Source of the DNA: a phage
DNA: 64,000 nucleotides
Strand: one strand, 5' to 3'
Assembly (NCBI GenBank): GCA_025832235.1
Contig: GCA_025832235.1_3649.1
Position numbers and translations under genes: made by a program. Shown piece by piece: positions 7,112 through 51,286 of the stretch; position 1 is the stretch's first letter, and every line of letters begins with the position of its first letter. A model generated the notes under the pieces. It made no database searches. It saw nothing but the letters and a program-made list of their open reading frames with translations, and had not been told where the DNA came from.

Positions 7112-7120
7112 GGTGCTTGT

Positions 7121-8126: not shown

Positions 8127-8178
8127 TATGGCAGAGGGGCTACGGCCCCTCTTTCACTATTTGCAAAAGGAACCAGCT

Positions 8179-8505: not shown

Positions 8506-8513
8506 GGTGGATT

Positions 8514-8813
8514 ATGTCTACAAAGGCGGCTAAATACTCCTATATGCCATCAACCTCTGCAGAGGTAGACTTTAGTTTCGATGTGTTTCCACTGTTTGAG
8601 GTGGTTCTGGCATACCCAACAATACTATCTACTCCTGAATCACTTGTGCCTGTTAAGTTGCAGAACGCTATGCATTCCATGCACTACAACAACAAATGTA
8701 GGCACAGATGGTGTCAGGACGAGGAAAAAGATTTGGATAGTTTGAGAGATTTTGACAGTCACCTTTTGACACCTTTCAGCTACTCCAACCTTGATAAGCC
8801 CTCGTGGGTATAG
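8514..8813 (+). CDS. hypothetical protein
   Basis: ORF track 8502..8813 (GTG); ATG 8514 follows GAGGTGG. Confidence 0.55.
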   Translation: MSTKAAKYSYMPSTSAEVDFSFDVFPLFEVVLAYPTILSTPESLVPVKLQNAMHSMHYNNKCRHRWCQDEEKDLDSLRDFDSHLLTPFSYSNLDKPSWV

Positions 8814-8837
8814 CAAAATATCAAATTTAAGACACCT

Positions 8838-8865
8838 AGGACGCTCTGTGGCGTCCTTTTCTTTA
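8838..8865 (+). terminator. rho-independent terminator (AGGACGC-loop-GCGTCCT + TTTTCTTT)
   Basis: 7-bp stem, 6-nt loop and T-tract immediately after stop of 8514..8813. Confidence 0.6.
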
Positions 8866-9026
8866 TCTGGTGCACGATTGCATACCTTGGGTAGTTAATC
8901 TCATTACAGAGCGTTTAAGAGCTCCCTACAAACAACTCCATATTTCGAGCGTAGCGAGAACGCACGTCCGTTTTGACCCAAATCACCATACGCTCGGATT
9001 TTAACCAAACCCTCGCGGCGTTTCTG

Positions 9027-9055
9027 TTGACACATTACCGCTCTCGTGATAGTAT
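9027..9055 (+). promoter_or_regulatory. sigma70-like promoter (TTGACA-N17-TAGTAT)
   Basis: TTGACA 9027-9032, 17-nt spacer, TAGTAT 9050-9055, about 20 nt upstream of 9076 start. Confidence 0.5.
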
Positions 9056-9075
9056 CCACACATCGTTTGGAGAAT

Positions 9076-9177
9076 ATGGGATACACAATGAGAACATTGT
9101 CTGAAGTTTTAGTGGTGATCCTGATGATCATTACGTCCATAGCGGCTGTTGCCGGAATACTCACGGGTGGAACATGA
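9076..9177 (+). CDS. small hydrophobic peptide (33 aa)
   Basis: Hand-translated MGYTMRTLSEVLVVILMIITSIAAVAGILTGGT; SD GGAGA; ATGA overlap with next gene. Confidence 0.35.
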   Translation: MGYTMRTLSEVLVVILMIITSIAAVAGILTGGT

Positions 9178-9386
9178 TCAACACACATGCATCTGAAGAG
9201 ACATCCGAAGGAGTGACCATATGTCCCTTGGATGAGCCAGTTAAAGAGGAAAACTTCGATTCTGAAGATTCTCCATCTTCGCTCCAGGTAGATCCTGAGG
9301 CTGATGACTTGACGTGGGGAGACATCGTAGATATCTGGTTCTCTATTATGCCTGAGCACGAAGAGTTCAGAGGTGGTAGACTATGA
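9174..9386 (+). CDS. hypothetical acidic protein
   Basis: ORF track; coupled to upstream peptide; preferred over antisense ORFs 8904..9359 and 9161..9400. Confidence 0.45.
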   Translation: MINTHASEETSEGVTICPLDEPVKEENFDSEDSPSSLQVDPEADDLTWGDIVDIWFSIMPEHEEFRGGRL

Positions 9387-9507
9387 AGCACCGAGCCCAC
9401 ACAGGTTCCTCATGCTAAAGCATGGCCTGAAGAGGCAAACGTGCATAATTCCTGTGCATCGGAGCGTATAAAACCCTGTTCACACTCTCATTTCCAGAGG
9501 AGATTTC

Positions 9508-9723
9508 ATGAAGATAGAAATATTTGGTGGAGCTGACAACACTCGTGGCCTGATTTACCTTGAATTCGATGAATCATACCTGCCAGAGGTGTTAAATATA
9601 GACTCTGTTGCTGAGGCTTTGGGAGTAAACCCTAAAGAACTCCACTCTTGTGCTGAGATCGATGGTTGGGAAGAGACCATGAACATTGATTTCAGTGAAG
9701 TAGAGGATGAACCGCTGGACTGA
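9508..9723 (+). CDS. hypothetical acidic protein
   Basis: ORF track; SD GAGGAG upstream. Confidence 0.55.
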   Translation: MKIEIFGGADNTRGLIYLEFDESYLPEVLNIDSVAEALGVNPKELHSCAEIDGWEETMNIDFSEVEDEPLD

Positions 9724-11220
9724 CACACAATATTAGCTGCCCGGCTAAAGTGCTGGAAGCACCTATAACACATCTTTCAACTAAATTTCCTACCACCACA
9801 ATCACTTACCTCCCATACATGACTGTTTGCTTGTTTAGTGAGCAGTCATGCCTTGACATTCTTGCCTATCCTGATAAAATTAAGTTCTTCTCTTTTCTTT
9901 TACCGAGTAATTCGGGTTTTCTGTTCTCTTCGGTTTGAAGGGGTATGGAGATACACCTGAGTGAACAGGGTGAACAACCGAACCATTGGCTATGGCATTA
10001 GCATGGCGAAGCGGACGGGTGACGAAAGAGGGGCCGGAGGACACCAGTCACTGCCATATGATATATGGGTGATAACCTGAAGAGTCTGAATAAGTGTTTA
10101 AGTACCAGTCAGAGGAAAAGGTGAATGGTAGCCGAAGGGGGAGGGGGGTTTCTTGTATCTTTAATTTGTATATTATGTATACACTTGTAAACCAATTTCA
10201 TCTGAATCTGTTTACCACACAAAGTGGATAGAGACAAATATTACCTATTAAACTTGAATTATTTATAGAAAATACCACAACACCACTTAAGTCTTTGATT
10301 TTACACACAAATCTTACAGATATTCAACCTCCATATTTAACATACCTGTAACATATTCCATACTCTACCTGTCTGATCAATCTACCCAACCACATCCTTC
10401 ATATTTTCCCTGTCTGTACCACCCCTGCCCCGCCGGGAGTCCCGTCATATCTGGCTTTCCAGCAAATATCACACCCACAAATATCATTGCCTGAAGAGGG
10501 TTTCATCCCATAATACATGCCTTACCTGAAGAGCGCTTCATACACCACGTAAATTTTTTAATTGACCTGCAATTTTCCCGTCATGACCCCCTGCCCCGCC
10601 GGAGAGGTTGGCTTTTCCCACACAGACCTGAAGAGTCAGCCAGAAATATCTGAACAGGCCCAATTCTACCACGATTTTGACCTGACCTACAGGAGTGCTG
10701 CCAGGCGGACGAAATGGGAATACTTCTCATTCTTATAACAATTCTCAAATATCAAGGCAGTGAGGCAAATTAATAGGCTAGGCCGTTCACACAGTGGCAC
10801 AACATTTGCAATCTATTTTGTGTGGGGGAATGAGAATACATATCATTGTGAGAACCATTATCATTACGGGCAATTTAACATAATACCCATTATGCGCACC
10901 ACTGGCGATACATACAGGGATTGATAACATGAGTTACTGTTTACGCATATAACAATTATATTTATTACTATTTGTGTGGGATATAGTTAGCAGCCGATAG
11001 ATTAGATATTGACCTGCGGACTTCTGACCGTCTAGACGTCTAAACGCCCACACAGCAAGGGTTATACATACATCGCTGAATGTAAACAGGGCCGCAAAAA
11101 TGCTACCATACCAGTTTGTAAATTTTCAATGCAGCACTTGACAAAGAGGAGAAAAACTTGTCTGACACCTTATACACTTTCGATACAATAACGACTGTTA
11201 TTATTTCATGTTTCACTGTT

Positions 11221-11295
11221 CACGTATAGATTGTTCCCGCATAGACTGTTTACGCCTGGATAGTTTACACCTTGACAGTTTACGCATAGATGATA
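11221..11295. repeat. five tandem 15-bp iteron-like repeats (consensus NNCGCATAGAcTGTT)
   Basis: cacgtatagattgtt / cccgcatagactgtt / tacgcctggatagtt / tacaccttgacagtt / tacgcatagatgata in perfect 15-bp register. Confidence 0.6.
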
Positions 11296-11297
11296 AG

Positions 11298-11544
11298 CCA
11301 TGCCATTCGTTTGCATGAAAACAATTAGCAAGTTAACAATTAACAAGTTAATAATATATGACATAATATAAAAGCAGGGCAACTATTATTAGATCTATAG
11401 TTGCCTTGCTTATTATGTCATGATTAACTGAATATAAGGCAACTATGATCTGATTAATAGATTGCAGACAAACTATCACGGGGGTGATGGTTACTGCTTT
11501 TATATTATGTCGCGACTCCGTCGCGCCATGCCATTCGTTTGCAT
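11298..11544. repeat. 19-bp direct repeat CCATGCCATTCGTTTGCAT (11298-11316 and 11526-11544) bracketing an 18-bp inverted repeat
   Basis: Exact direct repeat; inverted arms GACATAATATAAAAGCAG (11360-11377) and CTGCTTTTATATTATGTC (11494-11511); inner palindrome GGCAACTAT/ATAGTTGCC (11378-11405). Confidence 0.55.
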
Positions 11545-12170
11545 AGTTGCCTTATTGTTACAGGTAAAACAATTACATTGTTAACTATTTCTTATCTTTC
11601 TCTTAGTCATCTAATGATTCCAGTCAGTATAGTTATGTGCAGTAAACATTAGACGACTAAAGATTTCTCTGATTATAGTAACCTATCGTGACAATTTCGA
11701 ACTGTTTACGAAAAATGTTGACACCTGGGCAGGTTTATGTTATGCAGTTTGTACGAATAATTATTTTGTACAGGTATTGACTATTCCGTTATTCTGTGGT
11801 TGGAATAAATACTTTGCAGGCTATAGAATGGTGATCGTACGTGGATTCTGAGATCTGTCGGCTATAGTTACACCCGATTTTTCACGTAGGACACGCTTTT
11901 TGGTTTGTGTAAGTGTATGACTTATAAGGGTTTTTAATTGTTGACAGTATACTGAAGATGTGCATCAGGTTAAATTTTGTGCAATAGCTGCATTACGTGC
12001 AATTTTGGGAGAGAAAACGGGTAAAAATAGCACCGCTACCACACAATGAAAGGTTATGCAATAGCTATTTTACATGTATATTTGTACAGTGTGCGGGATT
12101 GATGGCTCGTCAATTATTCCACTTGTCAGGTAGGGCCGTTTATGGTAGGAAAAGAGCAAACAAAAAGAAA

Positions 12171-12185
12171 GGGGCCTAAGCCCCT
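12171..12185 (-). terminator. rho-independent terminator ending the leftward unit
   Basis: GGGGC-CTAA-GCCCC stem-loop; on the minus strand it is followed by a U-rich tract; just downstream of stop of 12199..12462. Confidence 0.55.
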
Positions 12186-12198
12186 TGATAATGTTGTA

Positions 12199-12462
12199 TT
12201 ATTTGTTGCTCATCCAGTTTTCCCAAGCTGCCTGATAATCTGCCTCACTGCGGCGGATCTCTTCTTGTTCTTCAAGCCGGATCTCTTCTTCCAGGTACCC
12301 AAGGATGTCGGATTTTTTGGTCTGGCGTAACATCCAATCATCTTTTTTACGAGTAAAGATCTTGTACGCTTTCTCGCAAACCTCTTTTTTACTACCTTTT
12401 TGTACTTCAAGAACTTTGTAGGCCATGTACTGAACTAGTTTGAGCTGATCAAGACGTTTCAT
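12199..12462 (-). CDS. hypothetical protein
   Basis: ORF track; SD AAGAGG before ATG. Confidence 0.55.
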   Translation of the reverse strand: MKRLDQLKLVQYMAYKVLEVQKGSKKEVCEKAYKIFTRKKDDWMLRQTKKSDILGYLEEEIRLEEQEEIRRSEADYQAAWENWMSNK

Positions 12463-12494
12463 GATGTTTACCTCTTTATGCGGTTCTGATTAGT

Positions 12495-12508
12495 GGGCCT
12501 TTTGGCCC
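12495..12508 (-). promoter_or_regulatory. 5'-UTR stem-loop (GGGCC-4-GGCCC), member of recurring hairpin family
   Basis: GC stem about 30 nt upstream of start codon. Confidence 0.4.
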
Positions 12509-12522
12509 GTGTCATTATCTTA

Positions 12523-12795
12523 TTACTTATGGCGGCAGAATTCAAGCGTTTTTAATTGATAATCTTCCTCAGCCTGGAGTACGACCGCCTCGATCATTTC
12601 GTTGGCATTGTTAAAGCCATAACCTTTAGCGAAATCATCCGCGCCACCTTCGTGATCATGTTCTGCGTTCATCGCTTCCACAAAATGGAATTCAAGATTA
12701 TTGAGGTAAGGGCTTGATGTTCCGTCCTCTTTTTCGATGAGATTCCAAATAGCATTAAAACGTGATTCGACTTCTTGATTAATCCAGCTTGACAT
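12523..12795 (-). CDS. hypothetical protein
   Basis: ORF track; SD AGAGAGGAAAAC before ATG. Confidence 0.55.
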   Translation of the reverse strand: MSSWINQEVESRFNAIWNLIEKEDGTSSPYLNNLEFHFVEAMNAEHDHEGGADDFAKGYGFNNANEMIEAVVLQAEEDYQLKTLEFCRHK

Positions 12796-12824
12796 GATGT
12801 TTTCCTCTCTTCTGGTTGTTGTGT

Positions 12825-12838
12825 GGGCACTTTTGCCC
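12825..12838 (-). promoter_or_regulatory. 5'-UTR stem-loop (GGGCA-4-TGCCC)
   Basis: Hairpin followed by CA-rich spacer and SD. Confidence 0.4.
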
Positions 12839-12848
12839 CTTCAAGATA

Positions 12849-12877
12849 ATGTTACCCCACCCCCTGGCAGATGTCAA
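12849..12877 (-). promoter_or_regulatory. sigma70-like promoter (TTGACA-N17-TAACAT)
   Basis: TTGACA (plus-strand TGTCAA 12872-12877), 17-nt spacer. Confidence 0.35.
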
Positions 12878-12902
12878 CGGTTTTTATAGTTCTTATATGA
12901 CA

Positions 12903-12945
12903 GGCAGGCCCGGTGATTGTCTCCACCCGTCGCCAGGTGCCTGCC
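12903..12945. repeat. GC-rich element copy C: GGCAGGC...GAGACAATCACCGGG...GCCTGCC (7-bp terminal inverted repeat)
   Basis: Reverse-complement matches copies at 21536-21571 and 21688-21716. Confidence 0.5.
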
Positions 12946-13005
12946 GTGTAATAAGTATAACAAAAAACAGGACCATAGCAAGCCCTGTTTTGTAGTTTAT
13001 AAATA

Positions 13006-13197
13006 TTATATTTTTTCGCCTATGTAGTCCGGTCGGTTTTTCTCTGTCATGCGCTTTAGCAATTCTTGCATGTTACTTATGGCTTGTAGCGTATCCTCTT
13101 CCAGACTTGAATCAACATAATCAGGATCGTCTATAACCTTTCTATGATTATGATAACGCAGTACCGCCAATACCTTTCTAACTTGTTCGGTATTCAT
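13006..13197 (-). CDS. hypothetical protein
   Basis: ORF track. Confidence 0.5.
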   Translation of the reverse strand: MNTEQVRKVLAVLRYHNHRKVIDDPDYVDSSLEEDTLQAISNMQELLKRMTEKNRPDYIGEKI

Positions 13198-13346
13198 TTT
13201 TATCGCTCTTTAAAACAAGGTGCCAACCGTTTCCAATAGATCACTGACTATCAGGACAATACTGATCAGCACATACCTAACCATAAAGGGAAAGATCGCC
13301 AACATTGCCGCCACGATTCCCATGGTGATAATTATCTTTCTCATGA

Positions 13347-13631
13347 TTAACGGGTCACGTAAGTTTTCCCGTTTACGGTTATCTGCAGATCCTCCAGGTC
13401 TGGATCTTCTTTAAGGTCGCGAGCAAGCTCACCGCACCGGATACCCTCGAATCCGTAGTACTCTGTTGTACCGTCATTAAAAGTTTTAGCGGCAAGGCAT
13501 AAGCGATAAGTAACCCCGATTTGATTGACGGCATGAATATCCGTTAGATTAACCTCTTTTGCCAGCTCTTTAGCCATTACAGGCGCATTAAGTCCAACAA
13601 CCAGGGCAACCACTGCGATCATCTTTTTCAT
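13347..13631 (-). CDS. hypothetical secreted/periplasmic protein
   Basis: ORF track; N-terminal signal-peptide-like MKKMIAVVALVVGLNAPVMA. Confidence 0.6.
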   Translation of the reverse strand: MKKMIAVVALVVGLNAPVMAKELAKEVNLTDIHAVNQIGVTYRLCLAAKTFNDGTTEYYGFEGIRCGELARDLKEDPDLEDLQITVNGKTYVTR

Positions 13632-13722
13632 TGTGTCTATCCTCTTTCTGCTACGTTTAAGGCGGCGGTAACCGCCTGTTTAAGCTTTGTTGGTTAATTT
13701 TCGGGTATCGGTATAAATTAAA

Positions 13723-13938
13723 CTATGCTGTACGCTCAACTATAACAACGGTTTGGGGGATCTCCCCCTCCACCACTAGTAAGGCCTTTTTCTGCGTGAT
13801 AGATATCTTTACCCGTTGCAGCGTGGCGGTGAAGTCTTTCATTTCGTCACGCGGTGTTTTAGTGCAGTACCAGATCTCAGGCTTGCCGATCTGTAAGTTG
13901 CGTAAAAATTCTGTTTTGCCTGTTTTGTTAGTGATCAT
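13723..13938 (-). CDS. hypothetical protein
   Basis: ORF track. Confidence 0.5.
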   Translation of the reverse strand: MITNKTGKTEFLRNLQIGKPEIWYCTKTPRDEMKDFTATLQRVKISITQKKALLVVEGEIPQTVVIVERTA

Positions 13939-13947
13939 TTGTCAACC

Positions 13948-14052
13948 TCACCCGATACCGTTGGAAGACAAGATCACATTAGCCATGGTTGCAATCAGGC
14001 CAATACCCAGGGCAATAACCAGGATCACCGCATCAATTAATTTCTGTTTCAT
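13948..14052 (-). CDS. small hydrophobic peptide (34 aa)
   Basis: Hand-translated MKQKLIDAVILVIALGIGLIATMANVILSSNGIG; SD GAAGAGGAAAAC. Confidence 0.3.
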   Translation of the reverse strand: MKQKLIDAVILVIALGIGLIATMANVILSSNGIG

Positions 14053-14142
14053 TTTGTTTTCCTCTTCTTGTTCCAGGTGGCGGACCATTCCACCGCCTTA
14101 TGTATTATGCTTTGTAAGATGGTTGTTTGTTTTCAAACTATT

Positions 14143-14322
14143 TTAACGATAATCATCGTACGCTTTATTAACCTGGCGAATATAACATTCAAAAGCCAGA
14201 TCAATAGATTTATATTCACGGATATACTCACCATAGGAAACCACATACATTTCTATAGCTTCCTCATATGCGAGGAGAATAGAATCCAAGCCTACGATCT
14301 CAGTCTTTGCAATAATAGCCAT
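14143..14322 (-). CDS. hypothetical protein (59 aa)
   Basis: Hand-translated ORF just under the track cut-off; SD AAAGAGGATAAAAATC before ATG. Confidence 0.4.
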   Translation of the reverse strand: MAIIAKTEIVGLDSILLAYEEAIEMYVVSYGEYIREYKSIDLAFECYIRQVNKAYDDYR

Positions 14323-14369
14323 GATTTTTATCCTCTTTGTGGTTGGTGGGGCTTGCCCCTTTGATTTAT

Positions 14370-14397
14370 ATACTACAGTCTTATATGGTCATGTCAA
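14370..14397 (-). promoter_or_regulatory. sigma70-like promoter (TTGACA-N16-TAGTAT) followed by 5'-UTR hairpin at 14348-14359
   Basis: Plus-strand TGTCAA 14392-14397; hairpin GGGG-CTTG-CCCC. Confidence 0.4.
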
Positions 14398-14627
14398 CTA
14401 TTTTCAAAAAATTTTTCTGCTGTAATATTTTTCCCGGTAGGGTTCGCTACTTTCAAAATTCTATCATGCACCGGACGCCCAAAAGAATAAGCGCCGTACA
14501 CAGTAAACCAATAATCGCCGTCAGGCTGTACTATTACCGCCGCATATGGTACGCCTTTTTCGTTTTTGCTGACAAAATAGATCACATTGCCATTAATAAC
14601 CTCAGCGCGTTTAATTTGTTCCATCAT
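14394..14627 (-). CDS. hypothetical protein
   Basis: ORF track. Confidence 0.55.
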   Translation of the reverse strand: MMEQIKRAEVINGNVIYFVSKNEKGVPYAAVIVQPDGDYWFTVYGAYSFGRPVHDRILKVANPTGKNITAEKFFENS

Positions 14628-14681
14628 GATGATTTACCTCTCTTTATTTTCATAATTGGGGCCTTTTCGGCCCCGCCAGGT

Positions 14682-14966
14682 TTATTTATTGATAGCGTGC
14701 AGCGGGAAAGCTACGCCAGGTTGATAGATAACCTTTACAACCTCATCAGGACAAAAGAAATTGCAGAACTCACCGCAATAGGCCTCATCCTCTTTTAATT
14801 CTTCATCAGCATACTCAAAAAAGTAGTCGATGCTTGGATAATCCTGCCCTGGGTTATAGTCAACCATTGTCAAGACCAGTTCAAGATCGTTGCGCAGGAT
14901 ATGCATACCCGCTTTTAAGTATTTTGCTTCCATTTCTACTACATCGCCAGCGGTAACAATAGCCAT
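14682..14966 (-). CDS. hypothetical acidic protein
   Basis: ORF track 14682..15014; internal ATG at 14966 (MAIVTAGD...) follows AGGAG. Confidence 0.5.
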   Translation of the reverse strand: MAIVTAGDVVEMEAKYLKAGMHILRNDLELVLTMVDYNPGQDYPSIDYFFEYADEELKEDEAYCGEFCNFFCPDEVVKVIYQPGVAFPLHAINK

Positions 14967-15107
14967 AGTTTTAACTCCTGTTTCTGTTAATGATTGGGGG
15001 CCGCCCCCTGACACGTACTATTATCCATATTGTAGGGCTTGATGCAAGTACTTCTTTAAAAAAATTTTTAAGCGCCTTGGAGGCCGTTGTAACGCCAAAA
15101 TAATAAA

Positions 15108-15127
15108 GGCCATGCGGTTGCATGGCC
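15108..15127 (-). terminator. rho-independent terminator (GGCCATGC-GGTT-GCATGGCC)
   Basis: 8-bp stem; on minus strand followed by UUUAUUAUUUU; downstream of stop of 15189..15494. Confidence 0.5.
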
Positions 15128-15188
15128 TTTATGTGATTATATCGCTGTAGGCCCTGCTAGGGGCCTTATTTTGCATCATTTGCCGGAA

Positions 15189-15494
15189 CTATACAGAGAA
15201 AACATCGTTCACAATAGCGATCACAATGCCGCCCACCTTGTCACGGTCAACAATGCACAAATCACCATAGATCATGTGGTAGTCTGGATGATCTTTCACG
15301 GAATAGTCAATGAGCGTTTTCTTGTCGTCCAGCTTTGTAACTTCCATTCTCATAACGATATGAGAATCATCAAAGGCATTATTCCGAAAAGTCATAGCCT
15401 GACCACCAGGGCACCCAGTGATCTCCACTTCCACACCATCTACGATCTGACCATCAAAGAAATAAAGATTATTAGCCTGGATAAACATGATCAT
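15189..15494 (-). CDS. hypothetical protein
   Basis: ORF track; SD AAGGAG. Confidence 0.55.
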   Translation of the reverse strand: MIMFIQANNLYFFDGQIVDGVEVEITGCPGGQAMTFRNNAFDDSHIVMRMEVTKLDDKKTLIDYSVKDHPDYHMIYGDLCIVDRDKVGGIVIAIVNDVFSV

Positions 15495-15535
15495 TACTCC
15501 TTGTTAACTGCGTGGTATTTTAACAGGGTTTAAAT

Positions 15536-15579
15536 TTACTTTATTGATGGCCCTAGAGTCAAGGCCATCTAAAAATAAA
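15536..15579 (-). promoter_or_regulatory. conserved 45-bp element, copy 1: hairpin GATGGCC...GGCCATC with TTGACT in the loop, then TAAATT (-10-like)
   Basis: Near-identical to copies at 19248-19292 and 19868-19912. Confidence 0.5.
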
Positions 15580-15581
15580 TT

Positions 15582-15782
15582 TTACAGGCCTACAATCTCT
15601 TTGATTCGTTTAACCGCCGCCTCAGCGCCTTGGGGGTAAAAATTATGGTAACCAATCACGCGAGTGATACTAATCGCCGTTTGATGATCTTCATAGTCGC
15701 CCTTGAAGATTTCTTGACCGTCAATCAGCACGGCAATTTTTTCTTCTTTTTTGAAGTTAATAACGCGGATATTGTTGCTCAT
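15582..15782 (-). CDS. hypothetical protein
   Basis: ORF track. Confidence 0.55.
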   Translation of the reverse strand: MSNNIRVINFKKEEKIAVLIDGQEIFKGDYEDHQTAISITRVIGYHNFYPQGAEAAVKRIKEIVGL

Positions 15783-16040
15783 TTTTGTTTCTCCTTTCTG
15801 GTTTTTGTGTTGGTGGGGATGTTTCCCCGTTGATTGTTATTATCCATATTCAGGACCGGATTGCAACACCCCGGAAGAAAAATTTTTTGAAAAAAGTTAG
15901 GCCCCCAGGGATCGGGGGCCGTTATCAGTTACTTACAGAGATAAAATACATCCCTACGCCTAACAATATTTCAAGGGCGATGATCTCAAGCCATACCATA
16001 ACACGGCGCACCTTATCGGTGCGGGGCTTATCCTTGGGTG

Positions 16041-16286
16041 TCATCGTCTCCCCCTTCCCTCCTGGTAGTAGTGACGTGGTTTACAATGGCCCCCAGGAGT
16101 ACCATCACCACGCACATCACAAGAAAAATTATCTCCGCTGTTGTTCGATCCATTGTTATAAAATTCCTCAAGATCAGGCCTGAAAATAAAGCGTTCGTTA
16201 TTGAATCCGTCACGCCAGGCGGCTGGCTTCAAATCTTCACTAAAGGGATTAATTAACGTGGCATTATTTAAACGGTTGGCCCACAT
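16041..16286 (-). CDS. hypothetical protein
   Basis: ORF track 16041..16304 (TTG); ATG at 16286; overlaps 3' end of 16264..16635 in another frame, so uncertain. Confidence 0.35.
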   Translation of the reverse strand: MWANRLNNATLINPFSEDLKPAAWRDGFNNERFIFRPDLEEFYNNGSNNSGDNFSCDVRGDGTPGGHCKPRHYYQEGRGRR

Positions 16287-16635
16287 ATTTTCTATTCCTC
16301 TCAAATAGGCGATCCGCCTCAGTTAAACATATCTCATGGGCTTGATCTCTGGTTTTAGCTTCATCGAAAACTTGTTGTGCAAGGCTGCAACGCAAGGAGA
16401 CCGGAAGATCACTATAATAGGCGTTGACAAACGTTTGAGCGTCGTACAGGTCTGAAAATACTTTACCCTTTCTATTATTCCCCTTGTCAACAATTGCAAG
16501 GATAACCAATACAATAGTTGCAACCACCCCCAGGAAAATAGATATAATAAACCATAAAAAGGCGGATCTACCCATCTTGCCAGCGATCCAGGCGTTAAAC
16601 AAGGCAACCAATACAGCCAAAATAATAAATTCCAT
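16264..16635 (-). CDS. hypothetical membrane protein (two predicted TM helices)
   Basis: ORF track 16264..16668; ATG 16635 follows AAAGAGG; TM-like MEFIILAVLVALFNAWIAG and FLWFIISIFLGVVATIVLVILAIV. Confidence 0.55.
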   Translation of the reverse strand: MEFIILAVLVALFNAWIAGKMGRSAFLWFIISIFLGVVATIVLVILAIVDKGNNRKGKVFSDLYDAQTFVNAYYSDLPVSLRCSLAQQVFDEAKTRDQAHEICLTEADRLFERNRKYVGQPFK

Positions 16636-16699
16636 TCTATGTACCTCTTTTGCAGTTCTGTTTAACAATAAGGCGGCAAATATGCCGCCTGTTACCTGA

Positions 16700-17080
16700 T
16701 TAAAAATTATCGCCGTAAATCTTTCCGCTTTCTGCCCACACCACCACGCGGGGCATACTATCCCACACGTCTTGTTTTAGATTGAGCGCGTGCAATTCTT
16801 CGGTGGTGCCCATACCTGGCACGGGCTGATTGTATACTGCAAAACGACCACCCGCATAGTCATAGGCCAGAGTTAAATCACACTGGATCATCTTTTTGAT
16901 CATGGCATTAAGCATGGCATTAGCCGCATACTGATCACGTTTTAAAGGCAACTCTTTGATTAGTTTGCGATAGTTTTCAATGTGATCGCACACTGTTTCA
17001 CGTGGAAGATCTTTCATATCCTCGCGAAAGGTAACCAGGTTAAACATGACGGTGTCAATAGCTTTAGTAGTGTTTTTCAT
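16700..17080 (-). CDS. hypothetical protein
   Basis: ORF track 16700..17113; ATG 17080 follows AGAGGAAAAC. Confidence 0.55.
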   Translation of the reverse strand: MKNTTKAIDTVMFNLVTFREDMKDLPRETVCDHIENYRKLIKELPLKRDQYAANAMLNAMIKKMIQCDLTLAYDYAGGRFAVYNQPVPGMGTTEELHALNLKQDVWDSMPRVVVWAESGKIYGDNF

Positions 17081-17171
17081 GATGTTTTCCTCTTTGTTTT
17101 GTGTGGGGGGCAAACGTCTTGCCCCCTTGAGTTTTAATATAGCAGGTTTTTAGGTTATTGCAACACTTTAT

Positions 17172-17795
17172 TTATGAAAAAGTCATCTCGCCATATTCAT
17201 CCACATCAAACCGCCAATCATTGGCCTCGATAAGGCCGATCAGGTTTTCGGTAGTGAATTGTTCAAGATAGGCTTGCTCCAGGTCTACGTAAACCTTGCG
17301 GGATAGCTCCCGTACCGTCTCGGTGATCAGCTCTTCCAGCTCTTCAACTTTATCCTCTTGCTTGGTGGTCAGGTCTAGCCAATTGGTATCGATGCACCCG
17401 CCTATTGTGTTTTCGTGGTGATAATGGCTAAACGGGATACGCTCAACGCTTGCGGATAGCTCGCCATCGTGCATTGTGCCGAACAAGTGACGAATTGAGC
17501 GGAATTTAGTCAAAGACTTGACTTTACGCAAGAATTTTTCTAAGTTTACATTTTCAGCGCTAATTGACGCGCCGTCACCCTGGCACCAAAAGCCGGACCA
17601 ATGTACATCTGTATCTTCAAGCCCGTACTCTGGAAAAACATATTCTTTATAGTATTCAATTACACTTTCTGCAAAAAAGTTATCCCCGCTGTGTTCTTCT
17701 CTTTCGCGGACCATTTCAACGGCTTTTTCTTTTTGTTCGTCGGTCAGCACGTCGAAAGATAAATTGTAACCTGTGGTAATGTTAACGGTGGTCAT
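17172..17795 (-). CDS. hypothetical protein
   Basis: ORF track; own promoter and hairpin; no motif recognised. Confidence 0.6.
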   Translation of the reverse strand: MTTVNITTGYNLSFDVLTDEQKEKAVEMVREREEHSGDNFFAESVIEYYKEYVFPEYGLEDTDVHWSGFWCQGDGASISAENVNLEKFLRKVKSLTKFRSIRHLFGTMHDGELSASVERIPFSHYHHENTIGGCIDTNWLDLTTKQEDKVEELEELITETVRELSRKVYVDLEQAYLEQFTTENLIGLIEANDWRFDVDEYGEMTFS

Positions 17796-44989: not shown

Positions 44990-46174
44990 TTAAGCTTTAG
45001 CTAAAATGGCGCTAAACTCTTCACCAAACTCTTTTACAATCTTCATCAGGTTTGGGTACGCTTTGATCAGTTGAGCAACGATCTTGTCACGCCCTTTACC
45101 GATAAGCAAGGCATTTCCTAAGGCGTTAGGTTTCATCATCGCCATAAAGACTGAGAATACAAAATCTCGGTTCTCGTCCTTGAAATTTTCCCAAAGGAAA
45201 TCGAGGAAGTTTGCCACACAGCTAACAAGATCTTCGTCAGAGATACTTGCATTTTCCATCATATTACGAATAGCGATACAACCTTCAGATCCAAGAATCC
45301 ACAAGATGTCTGGCTGCTTAGGCCCTACGTATTCTTTGCAACCCCCTGCCATAATCCGACCGATTTCCGGTAAATTGCGTTTCTTGGTGTGGTAGGTCCA
45401 GATCTCTACCGCTGCAGTGTGACCAATAGCACCTTGCAGAAGAACACGGGCCATAGCGTCAGAAATAATACCGCTGTCAAAATCGTGCAGGATATCAGAT
45501 GCAGCAACCCAAGATCGCGGTGTGGCAAAAGATGGGCAATTAATTTCAGCCATAGCCTCATAATTATCAATAGCTGATGGAACTCTTTTCAGATACCCAA
45601 TTACAGAGGAGTGAACCCCGTTGAGGAATGCGTAGTCCTCAATAAACACCTCTGCATTGCTTGTAACCTCTACAATGATAAAACGGTTAGCCAGAGGGGC
45701 TTCGAGCGCCGAAAGAACCGCACCATCTGTAGAACGGTTACCCGCAGCCACAAAAACAGAACCCTTAGGGAATGCATAGGTGCCGCACTTGTGGTCAAGC
45801 ATAATTTGCATTGCAACCTTTTGCAGGTAGTTATCTGCATGAGTGAGCTCATCCAGAAAGATAATTCCGCTCCAGTCAGGATCCGCAGGCCAAAATTCTG
45901 GAATTGCAAACACTGTACGTGTAGTTCCATCCGCTTCTACAGGGATAGGTAGCCCAGATAAGTCGGCAGGATCTTTATCTGACAGTCGCACGTCAACAAG
46001 GTTGTCATCTCGCTCACCGAACATATTATCAGCGATCTGCTTCATCACCTGGCTTTTACCCACACCCATTGGTCCCAAAATTAGGACAGATCGGCTATGA
46101 CGTTGGGCAAACTGAATAATAGCTGGCAACTCACGGACAGTGATTTGACCACTTTCGAATACGTTTCTTGACAT
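44990..46174 (-). CDS. AAA+ ATPase (MoxR/AAA_5-like)
   Basis: Walker A LILGPMGVGKSQ; Walker B IIFLDELTHA; 394 aa. Confidence 0.6.
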   Translation of the reverse strand: MSRNVFESGQITVRELPAIIQFAQRHSRSVLILGPMGVGKSQVMKQIADNMFGERDDNLVDVRLSDKDPADLSGLPIPVEADGTTRTVFAIPEFWPADPDWSGIIFLDELTHADNYLQKVAMQIMLDHKCGTYAFPKGSVFVAAGNRSTDGAVLSALEAPLANRFIIVEVTSNAEVFIEDYAFLNGVHSSVIGYLKRVPSAIDNYEAMAEINCPSFATPRSWVAASDILHDFDSGIISDAMARVLLQGAIGHTAAVEIWTYHTKKRNLPEIGRIMAGGCKEYVGPKQPDILWILGSEGCIAIRNMMENASISDEDLVSCVANFLDFLWENFKDENRDFVFSVFMAMMKPNALGNALLIGKGRDKIVAQLIKAYPNLMKIVKEFGEEFSAILAKA

Positions 46175-46443
46175 TAGTAAAAGTCCTCTACTTGTGTGTA
46201 AGTGTTTTCAAAGTTTTCCAAAACAGATATCACATCGGATCTGTCAATATTATACGTGACTTTCCAGTTGAACGCAACCCTTTCTGCTGTTGCCTCTTCT
46301 GGCGCTAGTCGTCTGCTGGCATAAAAGAGTGTTGGAGTACACTTTCTTGCTTGCCCTCTAACTTTCCCATAATAATATCTGTGAATATCTTTGTCAAAAT
46401 TTAACTCTTTTTCTGCACGAAGTTCATATTGCTGGTATAACAT
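46174..46443 (-). CDS. hypothetical protein
   Basis: ORF track; ATGA-type coupling with upstream gene. Confidence 0.55.
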   Translation of the reverse strand: MLYQQYELRAEKELNFDKDIHRYYYGKVRGQARKCTPTLFYASRRLAPEEATAERVAFNWKVTYNIDRSDVISVLENFENTYTQVEDFY

Positions 46444-46487
46444 CTCTACTACTCCTTAAGCAGCATCCTTGCCGCCATTCCTGCCCA

Positions 46488-46868
46488 CTAGAATGCAGTC
46501 CGAATCCAGACAAGGTTCTTATCTGCCCAATCATAGAGGCAAGTCATTGCACTATTGAATTGCTCACACGGAGGATAATCTTCTTCCATCTGGCGCATAG
46601 CAGAGCCTTGTGGGTAAAGCTCCCGTGCTGCAAACCACGCATCGTAGTCATCCACGGTATCGAAGTAGTATACAACATCCTCCAACTCAGGATCGAACTT
46701 TGAACTATCAGGATCCAGTTGTTCAGGGAACTTGGAGCGTAACTTACCAGCCACAATACTTGCCAACTCGCTAACATGCTTATTGTCCCACTCCACTAGC
46801 TTCCCGTCTTCAGTGATGCGTCCTAACCACTGATCATGCAGGTCAACTGTTGTCTTCCACCGGGCCAT
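46488..46868 (-). CDS. hypothetical protein
   Basis: ORF track. Confidence 0.55.
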   Translation of the reverse strand: MARWKTTVDLHDQWLGRITEDGKLVEWDNKHVSELASIVAGKLRSKFPEQLDPDSSKFDPELEDVVYYFDTVDDYDAWFAARELYPQGSAMRQMEEDYPPCEQFNSAMTCLYDWADKNLVWIRTAF

Positions 46869-46870
46869 TA

Positions 46871-47128
46871 TCAGTCCACCTCTTCTTCTCGTTGTAGTTC
46901 AAGATACCCGTAGGTCTGGATATCTTCAAGAGTGTGGAACTCCCCATCTGCCGCTAAGGCACGAACAACTTGGCACAAAACCTTATGAGGAACTTCATCC
47001 AGACCCATATTCAGTGCAGGGAACACCTTATCTAAGTCAACAAAATAAATGAACTGTAGCTCACCAGCTTCAAAAGGTGTATCTTCAATAAACATCTTCT
47101 CGGCATTGGTCAAGATCTGCACTTTCAT
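46871..47128 (-). CDS. hypothetical protein
   Basis: ORF track. Confidence 0.55.
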   Translation of the reverse strand: MKVQILTNAEKMFIEDTPFEAGELQFIYFVDLDKVFPALNMGLDEVPHKVLCQVVRALAADGEFHTLEDIQTYGYLELQREEEVD

Positions 47129-47505
47129 TATTCTACCTCCTCTTCTTTTTCTTCGGCATTAGTTTCAGAGCTACCCCACTCTGGAGTTTCCACCTCGATA
47201 GTGAACTCACGCACTACACGGTAATTGCCCATGAAGCGCTCCACTTCGTCAAGGTTTATGGAGAGGCCATTGGCAACCAGGTCTGCAGCACCCTCTTCTA
47301 CCAGGTAGTCCAGATTGGCTTCCAAAGCTTCAGGCTCAAACCCTGTCAATGCAATCAGATAACCTTTCCCTTCATCAGGGAGGACAATACAGCCCAACTG
47401 ATTTTCTTTAAAAAGACAGTGACCATCATTATTGATTGGGTGTTCATTGCAGTAAATAGCTGCACGATAAGTAACTTTAGACATCGGTAAGGCCTCCTTA
47501 GGCAA
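47128..47505 (-). CDS. hypothetical protein
   Basis: ORF track. Confidence 0.55.
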   Translation of the reverse strand: MPKEALPMSKVTYRAAIYCNEHPINNDGHCLFKENQLGCIVLPDEGKGYLIALTGFEPEALEANLDYLVEEGAADLVANGLSINLDEVERFMGNYRVVREFTIEVETPEWGSSETNAEEKEEEVE

Positions 47506-47776
47506 TTGTCATTTTACATTCTTGAAATTTTAACACAAGACGGTGATTGTGTCTAGTGTCTAAAAAGATTTTTTCAACCATCAGGCACACGGTATAACCG
47601 TCCATCTTGTTAACAACAAAATCTCCAGGGTGAGGGAGGATGTCTCCCGGGTTGGGGAAACATAGTCCGCTCAAGAAGGCATCGTCGGTGGTAGACTTAA
47701 TAGATTTCCACACGCTATCTGCCTGAACATTCTCACCCACATAGTATACGCTACCACATGTCTTCATCATAGTCAA
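47498..47776 (-). CDS. hypothetical protein
   Basis: ORF track. Confidence 0.55.
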   Translation of the reverse strand: MTMMKTCGSVYYVGENVQADSVWKSIKSTTDDAFLSGLCFPNPGDILPHPGDFVVNKMDGYTVCLMVEKIFLDTRHNHRLVLKFQECKMTIA

Positions 47777-48672
47777 ATCTCCGCGTAAATTAAACTGGAA
47801 TCAGTATACTTCTTTAATGGGTAAATATCCTGTCCATAGATGCAGTCATTAAACACCTCATCTACCCAAAGGCTACACTTATATCCCATCATTTCTAAAA
47901 CGCCCATCTCTTCTTCGGTGAACTTATCACCGCTCTTGCAAGATGTCAATACCTCATTCTGTACTCTTGCTACCTCGAAGCGGTTATTGGCAATATCACT
48001 ATTGGCAATCAAATACTCACCTAAAGGGTGTGCAGCATTAAAGATGCACAGTGGACGGTTGACGTAATAGTCTCCCGGTGTATAAAAATTGTTGAGATCC
48101 TTCACCAGAACATTCTTATCAGTCACTTCATTTATAACATCATGCATATCACACATCTTTATATGTTTGAGGATTCCATCCCCCATCACAAAATAAAAAC
48201 TTGCTGAGACACTCTCGGCATAGATCTTACTAGATCCGTTGTAGTTGTATTTTACGCGAATGCTTACAGGGGTTTTGCCTGTCGCGTTAGCCATCATCCA
48301 AAGGAACGGAAGTTCAAACCTCTCCTCTGAGGAAACAAAAGGTGAAGTTGCCAGAGATCGGAAACCTCCAGAAAAGTTGAAAGTTACAGAGCCGCTCCGG
48401 CGATATGATACCGCATATTCTACTTTTATATCGACATAGCCGTTGGAGTAAGTGTGGCCTCCATTATCCAGATATGTCCACTTATCAGATCCGGATACCA
48501 GCCTACGCTCAATAACCTTCATTACTATAGGAATTAGCGGGTTGGTACAAACCGATTTTGAAGTAGCTTTATCATCCAAAGCCTCGTAAATTGCAGAAAG
48601 GATATCACCTGCTGAGAGATTGGTTGTGATATCTTGTTTCCACCGAGTGCTAAAGCTGTTAAGATTTGCCAT
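47773..48672 (-). CDS. hypothetical protein (first gene of the leftward operon)
   Basis: ORF track 47773..48714; ATG 48672 follows CAGGAG and lies downstream of the predicted leftward promoter. Confidence 0.55.
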   Translation of the reverse strand: MANLNSFSTRWKQDITTNLSAGDILSAIYEALDDKATSKSVCTNPLIPIVMKVIERRLVSGSDKWTYLDNGGHTYSNGYVDIKVEYAVSYRRSGSVTFNFSGGFRSLATSPFVSSEERFELPFLWMMANATGKTPVSIRVKYNYNGSSKIYAESVSASFYFVMGDGILKHIKMCDMHDVINEVTDKNVLVKDLNNFYTPGDYYVNRPLCIFNAAHPLGEYLIANSDIANNRFEVARVQNEVLTSCKSGDKFTEEEMGVLEMMGYKCSLWVDEVFNDCIYGQDIYPLKKYTDSSLIYAEI

Positions 48673-48712
48673 GATTAAGTGCTCCTGTGTTCGTTTTCTT
48701 TCGAATGGGTGC

Positions 48713-48741
48713 ACTATATCGTAGATTTATAGTAAAGTCAA
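48713..48741 (-). promoter_or_regulatory. leftward sigma70-like promoter (TTGACT-N17-TATAGT)
   Basis: Plus-strand AGTCAA 48736-48741 and ACTATA 48713-48718; -35 lies in one arm of palindrome GTCAAC-N11-GTTGAC. Confidence 0.5.
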
Positions 48742-48754
48742 CACGTTTTTGAGG

Positions 48755-48783
48755 TTGACATCTGTCGAGGCACTTGATAAGAT
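48755..48783 (+). promoter_or_regulatory. rightward sigma70-like promoter (TTGACA-N17-TAAGAT)
   Basis: TTGACA 48755-48760 in the other palindrome arm; TAAGAT 48778-48783. Confidence 0.5.
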
Positions 48784-48814
48784 TTCTTCACCTACAGAGC
48801 ACGAGAGACAACTC

Positions 48815-49795
48815 ATGAATCTTGAAAAATATTATACACCAGAAGAGTTAGAGCGCCTGCTCAAAAAATACAGACGCAAACAAAATAATGCACGGAAACG
48901 AGATATAGAGTTCAACCTGTCATGGGAAGAATACCTCCTATTTGGTAAAAAACTTTTAGGAGAGGGGGTATGCGACTATACCCTTATACCTTTCGACATG
49001 CACACAGATGAAAACGGGCTGGGGAATCCTTTCTACCCATCTCTGGAGCGGATAGATGATGAAGGTCCTTACGCAATTGACAATTGTTGTGTGGTAGGGT
49101 TGAGGTGCAACGCTCTGAAAGACTGTCTGGTAGATAAAAAGACTGCAATATTGATAAAAGACAAAACTGATCGAAAAATTGTCCAGCAGATGATGCTTCA
49201 CCTGAGCGAAGAGCGTATGGAGAAATTGAAAGGTGATTATACTTTTGAAGATTTCATCTTGCAATACGGGACAGAAGAAGATAAACTAGCACTTTTTGAC
49301 GAAGAGGAAGAAGATATGTCACCAATGCAGGACTTTAAAAATTTCATGGCTGATCGTGCAGCCAACAAACACATTTCAGACATCGTAAACGAAACTGTGA
49401 CAGAAGAAATTGGAGAACAGAACTCTGAAGAGGAAAAAGAGCCTCAGGAGGTCGAAGAGGAGATTGCAGAAGAGGTTCCTGCACTGCCTGACGATGTTGA
49501 GATTGCCAAAGCTTACACTTTCTATTGCCAGACGTTCTACGATGCAGGTATGAAAGTTGATCTGTCATTCAGCCAGTTTAAGAGCACATACATTCGAAAA
49601 TGTTGTGCTTTAACTGGTGAACGTCTCGGTGCCGGACTTAAACCCCTATTAGTTACCGACTGGAACAAAGGTTTCACCAAAGGTAACTTCATGGTAGTAT
49701 CTCCAATCATGGAGAAGGCTATGACAGACCTTATGAAGACCACTCGCATGACAATGACCGAGTTGGCTGGTATTTTCAAGCACGTTAAACAATGA
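48815..49795 (+). CDS. hypothetical protein with HNH-like motif and acidic linker
   Basis: ORF track 48749..49795; ATG 48815 is downstream of promoter; PSLERIDDEGPYAIDNCCVVGLRCNALK shares motif with 25892..26470. Confidence 0.45.
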   Translation: MNLEKYYTPEELERLLKKYRRKQNNARKRDIEFNLSWEEYLLFGKKLLGEGVCDYTLIPFDMHTDENGLGNPFYPSLERIDDEGPYAIDNCCVVGLRCNALKDCLVDKKTAILIKDKTDRKIVQQMMLHLSEERMEKLKGDYTFEDFILQYGTEEDKLALFDEEEEDMSPMQDFKNFMADRAANKHISDIVNETVTEEIGEQNSEEEKEPQEVEEEIAEEVPALPDDVEIAKAYTFYCQTFYDAGMKVDLSFSQFKSTYIRKCCALTGERLGAGLKPLLVTDWNKGFTKGNFMVVSPIMEKAMTDLMKTTRMTMTELAGIFKHVKQ

Positions 49796-49804
49796 CAGGG
49801 GCCA

Positions 49805-51286
49805 ATGGCCCCTTCTGGAGTTTTAATGGATAGCAGAAGTTCAGAAATCATTACCGCACAAAAAGATGATGCCTTGCGAATGCTGCAGGCCGCTCGCATG
49901 TACCTTCTTGAAAAGCTGCCGTTTTATGGCACACTGTTGTCAGGGTTGCAGTTCGTAGAAAACCACACATGGTGCTCCACCATGGCAACAGACCATAAAC
50001 GCATCTACTACAGCCCTGAGTTCATTATGGGGTTGGCAGATGAGCGTAAAACCATTCTTAAAGCATCTCTGACTGACAAGCAGTTTGAGATGGCTGAGGT
50101 TTTCTATTCCCCAAAATCTGTGAAAGAGGTGGCCTTTCTTCTGTCACATGAGGTGGGGCATATTATCTGTGATCATCTGGTCCGTGGTAAAAGCTTTGAG
50201 CCGGAACTGTTCAATATTGCTTGTGATCACGTTATCAACACAGGTCTTGTGGTTGACTTTAGCAAGCCTCCTTGTGTTTTCTTCCCGAAGGGGAAAAGCA
50301 CTGAGTTCGTAAAAGGTAAGCCTTTTGGCTTCTTAGCTAATTGCTACTGCGACATGAGGTTTCATGGATGGATTGCTGAGAACGTCTATGCAGTTCTTGA
50401 TAAACAAAGAGATCAGAATGGCGGTAAAAGTAAGAACGGTAAAGGTGAGAACTCCCAAGGAGATAAACGACAAACCGATGATCACATGAGCGGGAACGGT
50501 GGCACTAGTGATGATCTTGGAAAGGCTATGGGGTATGATCAGCCGCAACCAGTAATCAGTCAATCTGACAAAGATCAGGCCATGCAGGACTCTGGTGACA
50601 TGTTGGAAGCAGCAATGCAAGCTTCAGGAGGTCGTTGCCCCGAGGCGGTGCGCGAGTTTGTCAAAAACAGAGGCAAGCCTGTAATCAATTATATAGATAT
50701 TATTAAGCAACGTATGTTATCTAAAAGAAAGGCTGAGTTAACCTACAGAAAACCTGGTCGCCGATCTGGGTCTTTGACCACCACAATGCGAAAAGTTGGA
50801 GCTATAAACAAGAATCAACACGTTATTGTTCCTGGTCGTAATCCGGAAAACACTATAGATATTGTAGTGGCTTTAGACGTTTCTGGGTCGATCTCACAAA
50901 GAACTTTAAAGAAAATGTTCAATGAGATCACCGGGTTGTGCAATTTGTATAAAGAGTTTAAGGTTACTATGTTCTGTTGGTCAACGGAGGTTGGAGAGGT
51001 TAAAGTATACACTCGCGGTAACATCGATGAGATGATTAACTATGAGGTCCACTCAACATGGGGCACAACAGCCGCCTGCGTGTTCGAGTATCTGGATGCT
51101 AACATACCGAATGCAAAAGATGTCATCGTCCTTACCGACCTCTACTTTGAGCATAACTTTGAACAAAAGGCTGTTGACAACAAGTGGAAAAAGTACGATA
51201 CTTTATGGGTTCTCACCGAAGGGTATAATAAAAATTATATCCCGAGCTTTGGGAAAACTGTGGAATTAATCGAGTACGCTAAGTAA
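49805..51286 (+). CDS. VWA-domain protein with N-terminal zinc-metallopeptidase-like HExxH motif
   Basis: SHEVGHIICDH (HExxH); VWA MIDAS-like IVVALDVSGSIS; 493 aa. Confidence 0.6.
   Translation: MAPSGVLMDSRSSEIITAQKDDALRMLQAARMYLLEKLPFYGTLLSGLQFVENHTWCSTMATDHKRIYYSPEFIMGLADERKTILKASLTDKQFEMAEVFYSPKSVKEVAFLLSHEVGHIICDHLVRGKSFEPELFNIACDHVINTGLVVDFSKPPCVFFPKGKSTEFVKGKPFGFLANCYCDMRFHGWIAENVYAVLDKQRDQNGGKSKNGKGENSQGDKRQTDDHMSGNGGTSDDLGKAMGYDQPQPVISQSDKDQAMQDSGDMLEAAMQASGGRCPEAVREFVKNRGKPVINYIDIIKQRMLSKRKAELTYRKPGRRSGSLTTTMRKVGAINKNQHVIVPGRNPENTIDIVVALDVSGSISQRTLKKMFNEITGLCNLYKEFKVTMFCWSTEVGEVKVYTRGNIDEMINYEVHSTWGTTAACVFEYLDANIPNAKDVIVLTDLYFEHNFEQKAVDNKWKKYDTLWVLTEGYNKNYIPSFGKTVELIEYAK

Follow-up and report, generated by a model that had tools for sequence, protein, structure and literature searches.

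In group 2.2 jumbo phages, a MoxR ATPase and a metallopeptidase-vWA (von Willebrand factor A) protein have been described as a 'chaperone-cochaperone' pair (Iyer et al. 2021, Viruses 13:63, PMC7824862). These authors proposed a role in virion assembly with peptidolytic processing, with the MoxR-vWA pair of the Acidianus two-tailed virus (ATV), reported to act in tail development, as the precedent (PMC7824862). In N4-like phages (Schitoviridae), the AAA ATPase gp24 and the vWFA protein gp25 are encoded by long-known conserved core genes of unknown function (PMC4193335), a pair listed in the literature since 2009-2014. In the present study we examined a 64,000-nucleotide stretch of phage DNA (contig GCA_025832235.1_3649.1 of the NCBI GenBank assembly GCA_025832235.1; hereafter the window), which encodes a predicted MoxR-class AAA+ ATPase and, ~3.6 kb away on the divergent strand, a protein with a zincin-like HExxH motif and a VWA domain. 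The reading that we favour, with slightly better than even confidence, is that these genes represent an ancient, self-contained two-gene module whose operon was split in rV5-like phages, and that the target of the module is an intracellular protein of the early or middle phase, involved in replication set-up or host takeover, and not a part of the virion.

The locus in the window and described counterparts

The window belongs to an rV5-like Escherichia phage (Vequintavirus). Across the 8 kb around the two genes, over 100 genomes of Vequintavirus phages of Escherichia share 95-97% identity with it. The same 8 kb is also found at ~95% identity to the E. coli rV5-like phages in 16 'Campylobacter phage' records (MG065654, MG065659, MG065666 and others), the host labels of which seem questionable, perhaps owing to contamination or mislabelling. 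A preliminary description, made from the letters of the window, had claimed an ATPase and a VWA open reading frame (ORF), both of which are present, as are the Walker A and Walker B motifs that it named for the former. The features of the two genes are as follows.

44990-46174, minus strand: gene for a predicted MoxR-class AAA+ ATPase, 394 amino acids (aa)
46052-46075, minus strand: Walker A motif GPMGVGKS of the ATPase
45848-45859, minus strand: Walker B motif FLDE of the ATPase
Further ATPase motifs: AGNR (sensor 1), PLANRF and ATPRSW
ATPase residues 66-101: conserved helix-2-insert beta-hairpin
ATPase residues ~265-394: C-terminal helical extension
49826-51286, plus strand: gene for a protein with a DUF2201_N (HExxH) and a DUF2201 (VWA) domain, 486 aa from the likely start
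50147-50161, plus strand: HEVGH motif; H117, D134 and N138 are also conserved
50876-50890, plus strand: DVSGS of the metal ion-dependent adhesion site (MIDAS), completed by T414 and D438
VWA protein residues ~200-228: disordered Gly/Asp/Lys-rich linker
VWA protein residues 303-345: conserved basic segment directly before the VWA domain
49797-49813: GC-rich hairpin AGGGGCCAATGGCCCCT, which follows the stop codon of the Srd-like gene and precedes the ribosome-binding site of the VWA gene

Both window proteins match proteins of Rak2/PBECO4/Muenster-type jumbo phages with expectation values (E) of 1e-26 to 1e-42, and the published jumbo-phage pair (ASV44729.1 and ASV44728.2, likened here by description) has the same make-up, a MoxR ATPase with a vWA protein carrying an N-terminal metallopeptidase; it differs in its proposed role in virion assembly, whereas the context in the window points to the early or replication phase. 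The N4 pair, compared via relatives of N4, represents the same two families: in tblastn searches that matched genes annotated gp24-like and gp25-like in N4-like phages, the window ATPase gave E values of 1e-17 to 1e-20 and the VWA protein 4e-15 (phage LIT1), at identities of ~22-29%. The N4-like genes are co-directional within the replication module, either adjacent or one small ORF apart, whereas those of the window are divergent with seven genes between them.

More distant are NorQ/NorD and CbbQ/CbbO (MoxR ATPases of the CGN subfamily with their VWA partners), which share 16-20% identity with the window proteins. NorD resembles the window VWA protein in having a disordered linker between its domains, but neither NorD nor CbbO has the HExxH domain that forms the N-terminus of the window partner, the window ATPase carries an additional ~130-aa C-terminal helical extension that sets it apart from NorQ and CbbQ, and the clients of these systems, cNOR and Rubisco, are absent from phages. 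Midasin/Rea1 also combines an AAA_5 ring with its own MIDAS, but is a eukaryotic single chain of ~4,700-4,900 residues with six fused AAA modules and without a peptidase domain. The ATV pair, again likened by description, is a virus-encoded MoxR and vWA pair that lacks a peptidase domain and serves extracellular tail development, while BchD and the window VWA protein are alike only in the generic VWA fold. A chelatase pair (CobS/CobT, BchI/BchD) found no support, neither window protein having a Pfam or NCBIfam match to CobS/CobT or Mg-chelatase models. A known anti-phage defence system likewise found no support in searches with PADLOC models, which gave only P-loop-level matches for the ATPase (E > 0.002), and no match for the VWA protein or for the cellular homologues.

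The statement of the preliminary description that a phage-borne pair has no obvious assigned role holds in part only, because the literature already contains an account of the pair with a suggested role (PMC7824862). Literature searches on rV5 MoxR, the essentiality of N4 gp24/gp25, CRISPRi-ART and phage transposon sequencing (Tn-seq) found no functional data, and none found biochemical data on DUF2201_N members.

The ATPase and VWA genes are an essentially obligatory pair

Co-occurrence of the two genes was examined from both sides. An ATPase homologue lies within 10 kb in 29 of the 30 viral loci seeded with the VWA protein, the thirtieth having its ATPase elsewhere on the contig, and a VWA homologue lies within 10 kb in 36 of the 37 viral loci seeded with the ATPase; these two counts are not independent, because the seed sets share contigs. 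Among the bacterial and archaeal loci with enough sequence, the ATPase gene is on the strand of the VWA gene in 69 of 72 and immediately upstream of it in 55. The possibility, allowed for in the preliminary description, that the two genes never co-occur in related genomes is contradicted by all three sets of loci, and their co-occurrence is essentially obligatory. Every rV5-like genome sampled retains both genes with their motifs intact, and we conclude that the ATPase and the VWA protein are a functional pair.

Gene order follows relatedness. A divergent arrangement, in which 3.5-5 kb separate the two genes, is confined to rV5 and its closer relatives (VWA protein identity of at least 39%), whereas in all relatives with 36% identity or less the genes are co-directional with the ATPase first, and mostly adjacent. 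The co-directional set includes ~150-kb myoviruses (35% identity), Rak2/PBECO4-type jumbo phages, N4-like podoviruses, metagenomic contigs and a 578-kb contig. The ancestral state is thus a two-gene operon, and the rV5 layout a derived split across the divergent promoter region. A third gene conserved across the viral loci was looked for, and none was found.

The two proteins have also diverged together. In a Mantel test on the pairwise ATPase and VWA protein distances of 113 non-identical loci, the distances co-varied with r = 0.876, a value reached by none of 999 permutations, and with r = 0.67 for distant pairs only, a correlation that is partly expected from genome phylogeny alone.

The MoxR-class ATPase

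The window ATPase is 100% identical to the product of the phage V5 (rV5) gene named 'MoxR ATPase' in GenBank. A direct Pfam and NCBIfam search returned only sub-threshold P-loop matches (AAA_5 at 16.7 bits against a cut-off of 22, AAA_3 not listed), and a single-sequence search against PDB sequences matched ClpB and p97 at the level of the Walker A motif only. Both AAA_3, the MoxR model (29.8-35.3 bits, cut-off 27), and AAA_5 (26.9-37.7 bits, cut-off 22) are passed across the full model length by homologues that have ~34% identity at 85% coverage, as seen for proteins P0048, P0057, P0071 and P0084, and these homologues also approach the bpMoxR threshold. The membership of the window protein in the AAA_3/AAA_5 group is hence transitive and not direct, since only homologues pass the thresholds. 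A profile of the ATPase family searched against PDB gave the AAA modules of midasin as the best match (E 5e-10), in an alignment that spans Walker A to beta5. In a Foldseek search with the predicted structure, NorQ and CbbQ2 occupied ranks 1-18 with NorQ at the top (E 7e-8 to 5e-6; template modelling (TM) scores normalised on the target of 0.56-0.67), and MCM, ClpC and RuvB ranked below them. The direct Pfam matches being sub-threshold, the MoxR assignment draws on the homologues, the family profile and the predicted structure; on these grounds the gene at 44990-46174 is predicted to encode a MoxR-class AAA+ ATPase. The MoxR/AAA_5-like assignment of the preliminary description was therefore not recovered by direct domain search, but was recovered via homologues, NorQ/CbbQ and midasin.

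The AlphaFold2 (AF2) model of the ATPase (predicted local distance difference test score, pLDDT, 85.7) places strands 75-81 and 84-90, forming a hairpin at 75-90, between beta2 and beta3/Walker B, and short strands at 129-134 before beta4, corresponding to the pre-sensor-1 hairpin as in AAA+ clade 7; both hairpins were taken from the secondary-structure string of the model and not from its coordinates. Twelve positions are invariant in 43 ATPase sequences: G37, G39, K40 and S41; D108 and E109; N146 and R147; N163 and R164; and P219 and R220. By their resemblance to the MoxR motifs 'ALLDRF' and 'SPRA', we take R164 to be the Arg finger and R220 to be sensor 2. The helix-2-insert is also highly conserved (D66, K67, D71, G74, P78, A90, P92, W95, P96, P99 and W101).

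The ATG of the ATPase gene overlaps the stop codon of a preceding 89-aa ORF (46174-46443, minus strand) in the sequence TAATG. This ORF is conserved in close relatives only and is named 'ATPase' in PHROG 13164 and several records, apparently for the sole reason that it adjoins the ATPase gene. The best sigma-70 match of the region (46369-46397, minus strand; TTGACA-17-TATTAT, 11/12) falls within it, ~195 nucleotides (nt) upstream of the ATPase start, and may represent an internal promoter or have arisen by chance.

The zincin-like and VWA partner

Domain searches agree with the VWA and putative-metallopeptidase assignment made previously. The protein scores 100 bits against Pfam DUF2201_N (PF13203; cut-off 23.2, E 2e-28) and 43.7 bits, above threshold, against DUF2201 ('VWA-like'; E 4e-11), and a test of the partner for the VWA fold was positive; some homologues match VWA_CoxE weakly. 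In the AlphaFold model (pLDDT 80.9) the N-terminal domain is helical, and a sheet of three strands precedes its HExxH helix. A sub-threshold Peptidase_M48 match over this helix is the one further hint of a peptidase beside Pfam membership and motif conservation. Judging from its conservation, D134 is a candidate third metal ligand.

A family profile search of 1.84 billion representatives (E ≤ 0.001) matched 25,492 members as representatives at 50% identity clustering, and motifs were counted in 174 diverse members. The DxSxS of the MIDAS (D351, S353, S355) is present without exception, and T414 and D438 occur in 169 and 173 members, respectively, while in the HExxH region H108 is conserved in 172, H112 in 171, the full HExxH in 161, and D134 and N138 in 173 each. 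This conservation among diverse members indicates that both HExxH and MIDAS are under strong selection. Three separate copies of DUF2201-type genes were seen on the chromosome of the planctomycete Limnoglobus roseus (NZ_CP042425.1; loci L120, L127 and L156).

The preliminary description gave the gene as 49805-51286; the ORF, its HEVGH and its DxSxS stand, but the start is better placed at ATG 49826, which is preceded by GGAG at a distance of 7 nt and serves in GenBank as the start of the 486-aa protein. The ATG at 49805 falls within the GC-rich hairpin, straight after the stop codon of the upstream gene, and from these signals 49826 is the likely start. Record names for this gene vary. PHROG 1314 calls the zincin-VWA family 'HNH endonuclease', and several GenBank/RefSeq records use the same name or 'anti-sigma factor'; others have 'putative metallopeptidase', 'VWA-like domain containing protein' or 'hypothetical protein'. 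The 'HNH endonuclease' and 'anti-sigma factor' labels are wrong; the sequence offers no support for an HNH nuclease.

Gene arrangement and promoters in rV5-like phages

The genes lying between the pair number seven, and are not six small ones as described previously: six are on the ATPase arm, including one of 313 aa, and one, an Srd-like gene of ~325 aa, is on the plus-strand arm. The divergent promoter pair at 48713-48783 was found as claimed, and the features of this region are as follows.

48741->48713, minus strand: sigma-70-like promoter candidate of the ATPase arm, TTGACT-17-TATAGT, 10/12 consensus
48755->48783, plus strand: sigma-70-like promoter candidate of the Srd-like/VWA arm, TTGACA-17-TAAGAT with an extended -10 TG, 10/12 consensus
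48815-49795, plus strand: Srd-like gene ('anti-sigma factor' or 'HNH' in records), ~325 aa (348-aa ORF)

Promoter-like sites are not strongly enriched in the region (21 seen against 15.5 ± 3.5 expected). In six loci, whose proteins have diverged to as little as ~40% identity, a perfect TTGACA -35 box stands at the equivalent position ahead of the Srd-like gene, and this conservation in diverged loci supports the plus-strand promoter being real; the back-to-back -35 arrangement was seen in two further loci. In one relative with good annotation, the ATPase arm goes on with rIIA, rIIB, a DNA helicase, methyltransferases, a primase/helicase and DNA polymerase, while the VWA arm comprises the Srd-like gene, the VWA gene and ~13 small genes, its end adjoining tail-fibre genes.

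The Srd-like gene is the first on the plus-strand arm, immediately upstream of the VWA gene, and adjoins it in all loci with the split arrangement; it is outside the ancestral module. Its product is a strong match to an 'HNH endonuclease' PHROG and a weak one to PHROGs for endonuclease VII, 'Srd anti-sigma factor' and 'decoy of host sigma70', with no match in Pfam, and an internal repeat that was looked for in the protein was not supported. The gene at 47773-48714 (minus strand) is named 'putative alpha 1-3 fucosyltransferase' in public records, a name that is apparently unsupported because the product matches only a PHROG of unknown function; it has no Pfam or NCBIfam match, and its translation probably begins at ATG 48672. 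No tRNA gene was detected in the window.

Gene neighbourhood and the phase of action

Neighbouring genes were surveyed by pooling 113 neighbour proteins from 19 diverse loci. The recognisable families are ThyA, ThyX, RNA ligases, DNA polymerases, helicases, endonuclease VII, gp32 and IMP dehydrogenase, and no capsid or tail families are among the neighbour families listed. The N4-like phage LIT1 has the order gp24-like, small ORF, gp25-like, helicase, DNA polymerase and dCMP deaminase, and in N4-like phages gp24 and gp25 are two of the 14 core genes and belong to middle transcripts (Chan et al. 2014, PMC4193335). In the 578-kb phage-like metagenomic contig (L074, positions 1-17434) the module lies in a proteostasis-rich cluster, together with genes for ClpX, ClpS, ClpP, HSP20, ribosomal protein S21 and an RNA ligase.

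Cellular versions have lineage-specific third genes, none of which is shared with the phage loci. These are a ~300-aa protein without a family match, encoded between the ATPase and VWA genes in 16 loci (L086-L117); a ~1,090-aa helicase, encoded upstream, that hits the 'DarB-like antirestriction' PHROG (E 3e-193), in 12, mostly Clostridia, loci (L076, L132-L153) with the order helicase-ATPase-VWA; and a ~950-aa LRV/HEAT-repeat protein encoded between the two genes in three loci (L121, L141, L154).

Taken together, the context points weakly to an intracellular client of the early or middle phase and away from a virion protein. The published proposal (Iyer et al. 2021, PMC7824862), a virion-assembly chaperone and co-chaperone with a processing protease that trims structural proteins, was made for the same architecture in jumbo phages and has the ATV precedent; the core-gene status of the pair in N4-like phages would suit an essential morphogenetic role, and the VWA arm of rV5-like genomes ends beside tail-fibre genes. 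We nevertheless consider it unlikely, given that the neighbour families listed belong to replication and nucleotide metabolism, that the rV5-like pair sits behind sigma-70-like early promoters, that the N4 pair is transcribed in the middle phase (PMC4193335), and that the module is common in cellular genomes, where the contexts examined contain no virion genes.

A host-takeover or anti-defence protease, the MIDAS of which would recognise a host protein, such as a defence or stress factor, to be remodelled and cleaved early in infection or when a mobile element enters, fits the early-promoter arms, where the pair is accompanied by rIIA/B, the Srd-like gene and numerous small early genes, the 12 Clostridia-type loci in which the module directly follows the DarB-like helicase, and the strong conservation of both HExxH and MIDAS. 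Genes of this kind are usually accessory and variable, whereas the pair belongs to the core genes of N4-like phages and is kept in phage groups that differ widely; neither protein has a PADLOC match. We regard this explanation, too, as improbable.

Proposed mechanism and remaining alternatives

If the pair works like NorQ/NorD, CbbQ/CbbO and midasin, the ATPase would form a hexamer in which the conserved helix-2-insert loops grip the VWA partner, and, as proposed from NorQ/NorD, a finger of the VWA domain would enter the pore that these inserts line. This docking picture fits the conservation of the helix-2-insert and of the basic segment 303-345 before the VWA domain. The intact MIDAS may capture an acidic residue of the target protein, and an ATP-driven rotation would then stretch the linker of the partner together with the bound target. 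Such movement would present the client to the HExxH domain, where it may be cleaved or where, at least, a metal may be bound. In rV5-like phages the ancestral ATPase-then-VWA operon has been split so that one gene lies on each arm of the divergent, putatively early, host-sigma-70 promoters.

A more specific proposal is that the pair is an early ATP-driven targeted protease, a MoxR ring with a MIDAS adaptor, whose cleavage of one specific intracellular protein, from host or phage, is required for replication to be established, and that this function is common to N4-like, rV5-like and jumbo phages and to mobile elements with the DarB-like helicase, with no role as a virion-assembly chaperone. 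We hold this to be rather unlikely. To our knowledge, no MoxR-VWA system currently known works as a protease.

If the HExxH were a metal-handling site, the pair could instead be a metal-cofactor insertase or activase for a phage enzyme, like NorQD, CoxDE and CbbQO. The closest solved relatives, NorQ/NorD and CbbQ, have this role, the neighbours are often metal- or cofactor-dependent nucleotide enzymes (ThyX, radical SAM, TSCPD), and some homologues show the weak VWA_CoxE matches. No conserved candidate client enzyme adjoins the module, though, the catalytic Glu present in 93% of relatives argues for hydrolysis over mere metal binding, and Pfam gives no match to the CobS/CobT or chelatase families, so that an insertase seems very unlikely. 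That the rV5-like genes became functionally independent after the split, their proximity being merely historical, would suit their separate strands and transcripts and their wide separation in one related contig, but is extremely improbable given that both are kept with intact motifs in every rV5-like genome sampled and that their divergence is still correlated in the Mantel test.

Returning to the ancient two-gene module with an intracellular substrate in replication set-up or host takeover, a number of points weigh against it. In rV5 the genes are on different transcripts, 3.6 kb apart, and in the rV5-related contig IMGVR_UViG_3300045988_163358 (loci L013 and L042) the gap between them is at least 35 kb, perhaps through a rearrangement or a fault of the assembly. 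These separations indicate that the pair does not require tight co-translation. Phylogeny alone would produce part of the Mantel correlation. The ATPase itself misses the AAA_3 and AAA_5 gathering thresholds, no relative of solved structure was detected for the N-terminal domain of the VWA protein, so that its zincin fold and third metal ligand are putative, and the catalytic Glu is missing in ~7% of relatives. Gene neighbourhood is weak evidence on timing or target, as assembly chaperones can be made early, and no experimental study of any phage family member was found in the literature.

Implications for rV5-like phages and the wider family

The GenBank name 'MoxR ATPase', the N4 core genes and the jumbo-phage pair (PMC7824862) were already known, and none of the present findings is conceptually surprising. 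New here are the link of the rV5 genes to the N4 and jumbo-phage families, evidence for the rV5 layout as a derived split, and the family-wide motif statistics. They bring a corrected annotation of the VWA protein, which PHROG 1314 and many GenBank records mislabel, and a context-based argument against assembly, the sole published functional proposal. The module is very common, occurring in 600-800 sequenced phage records, and is tractable: the jumbo-phage pair and N4 gp24/gp25 are of the same family as the rV5 genes, pairing is obligatory, HExxH and MIDAS are constrained, and close relatives of the window phage, such as JohannBauhin, grow on E. coli K-12.

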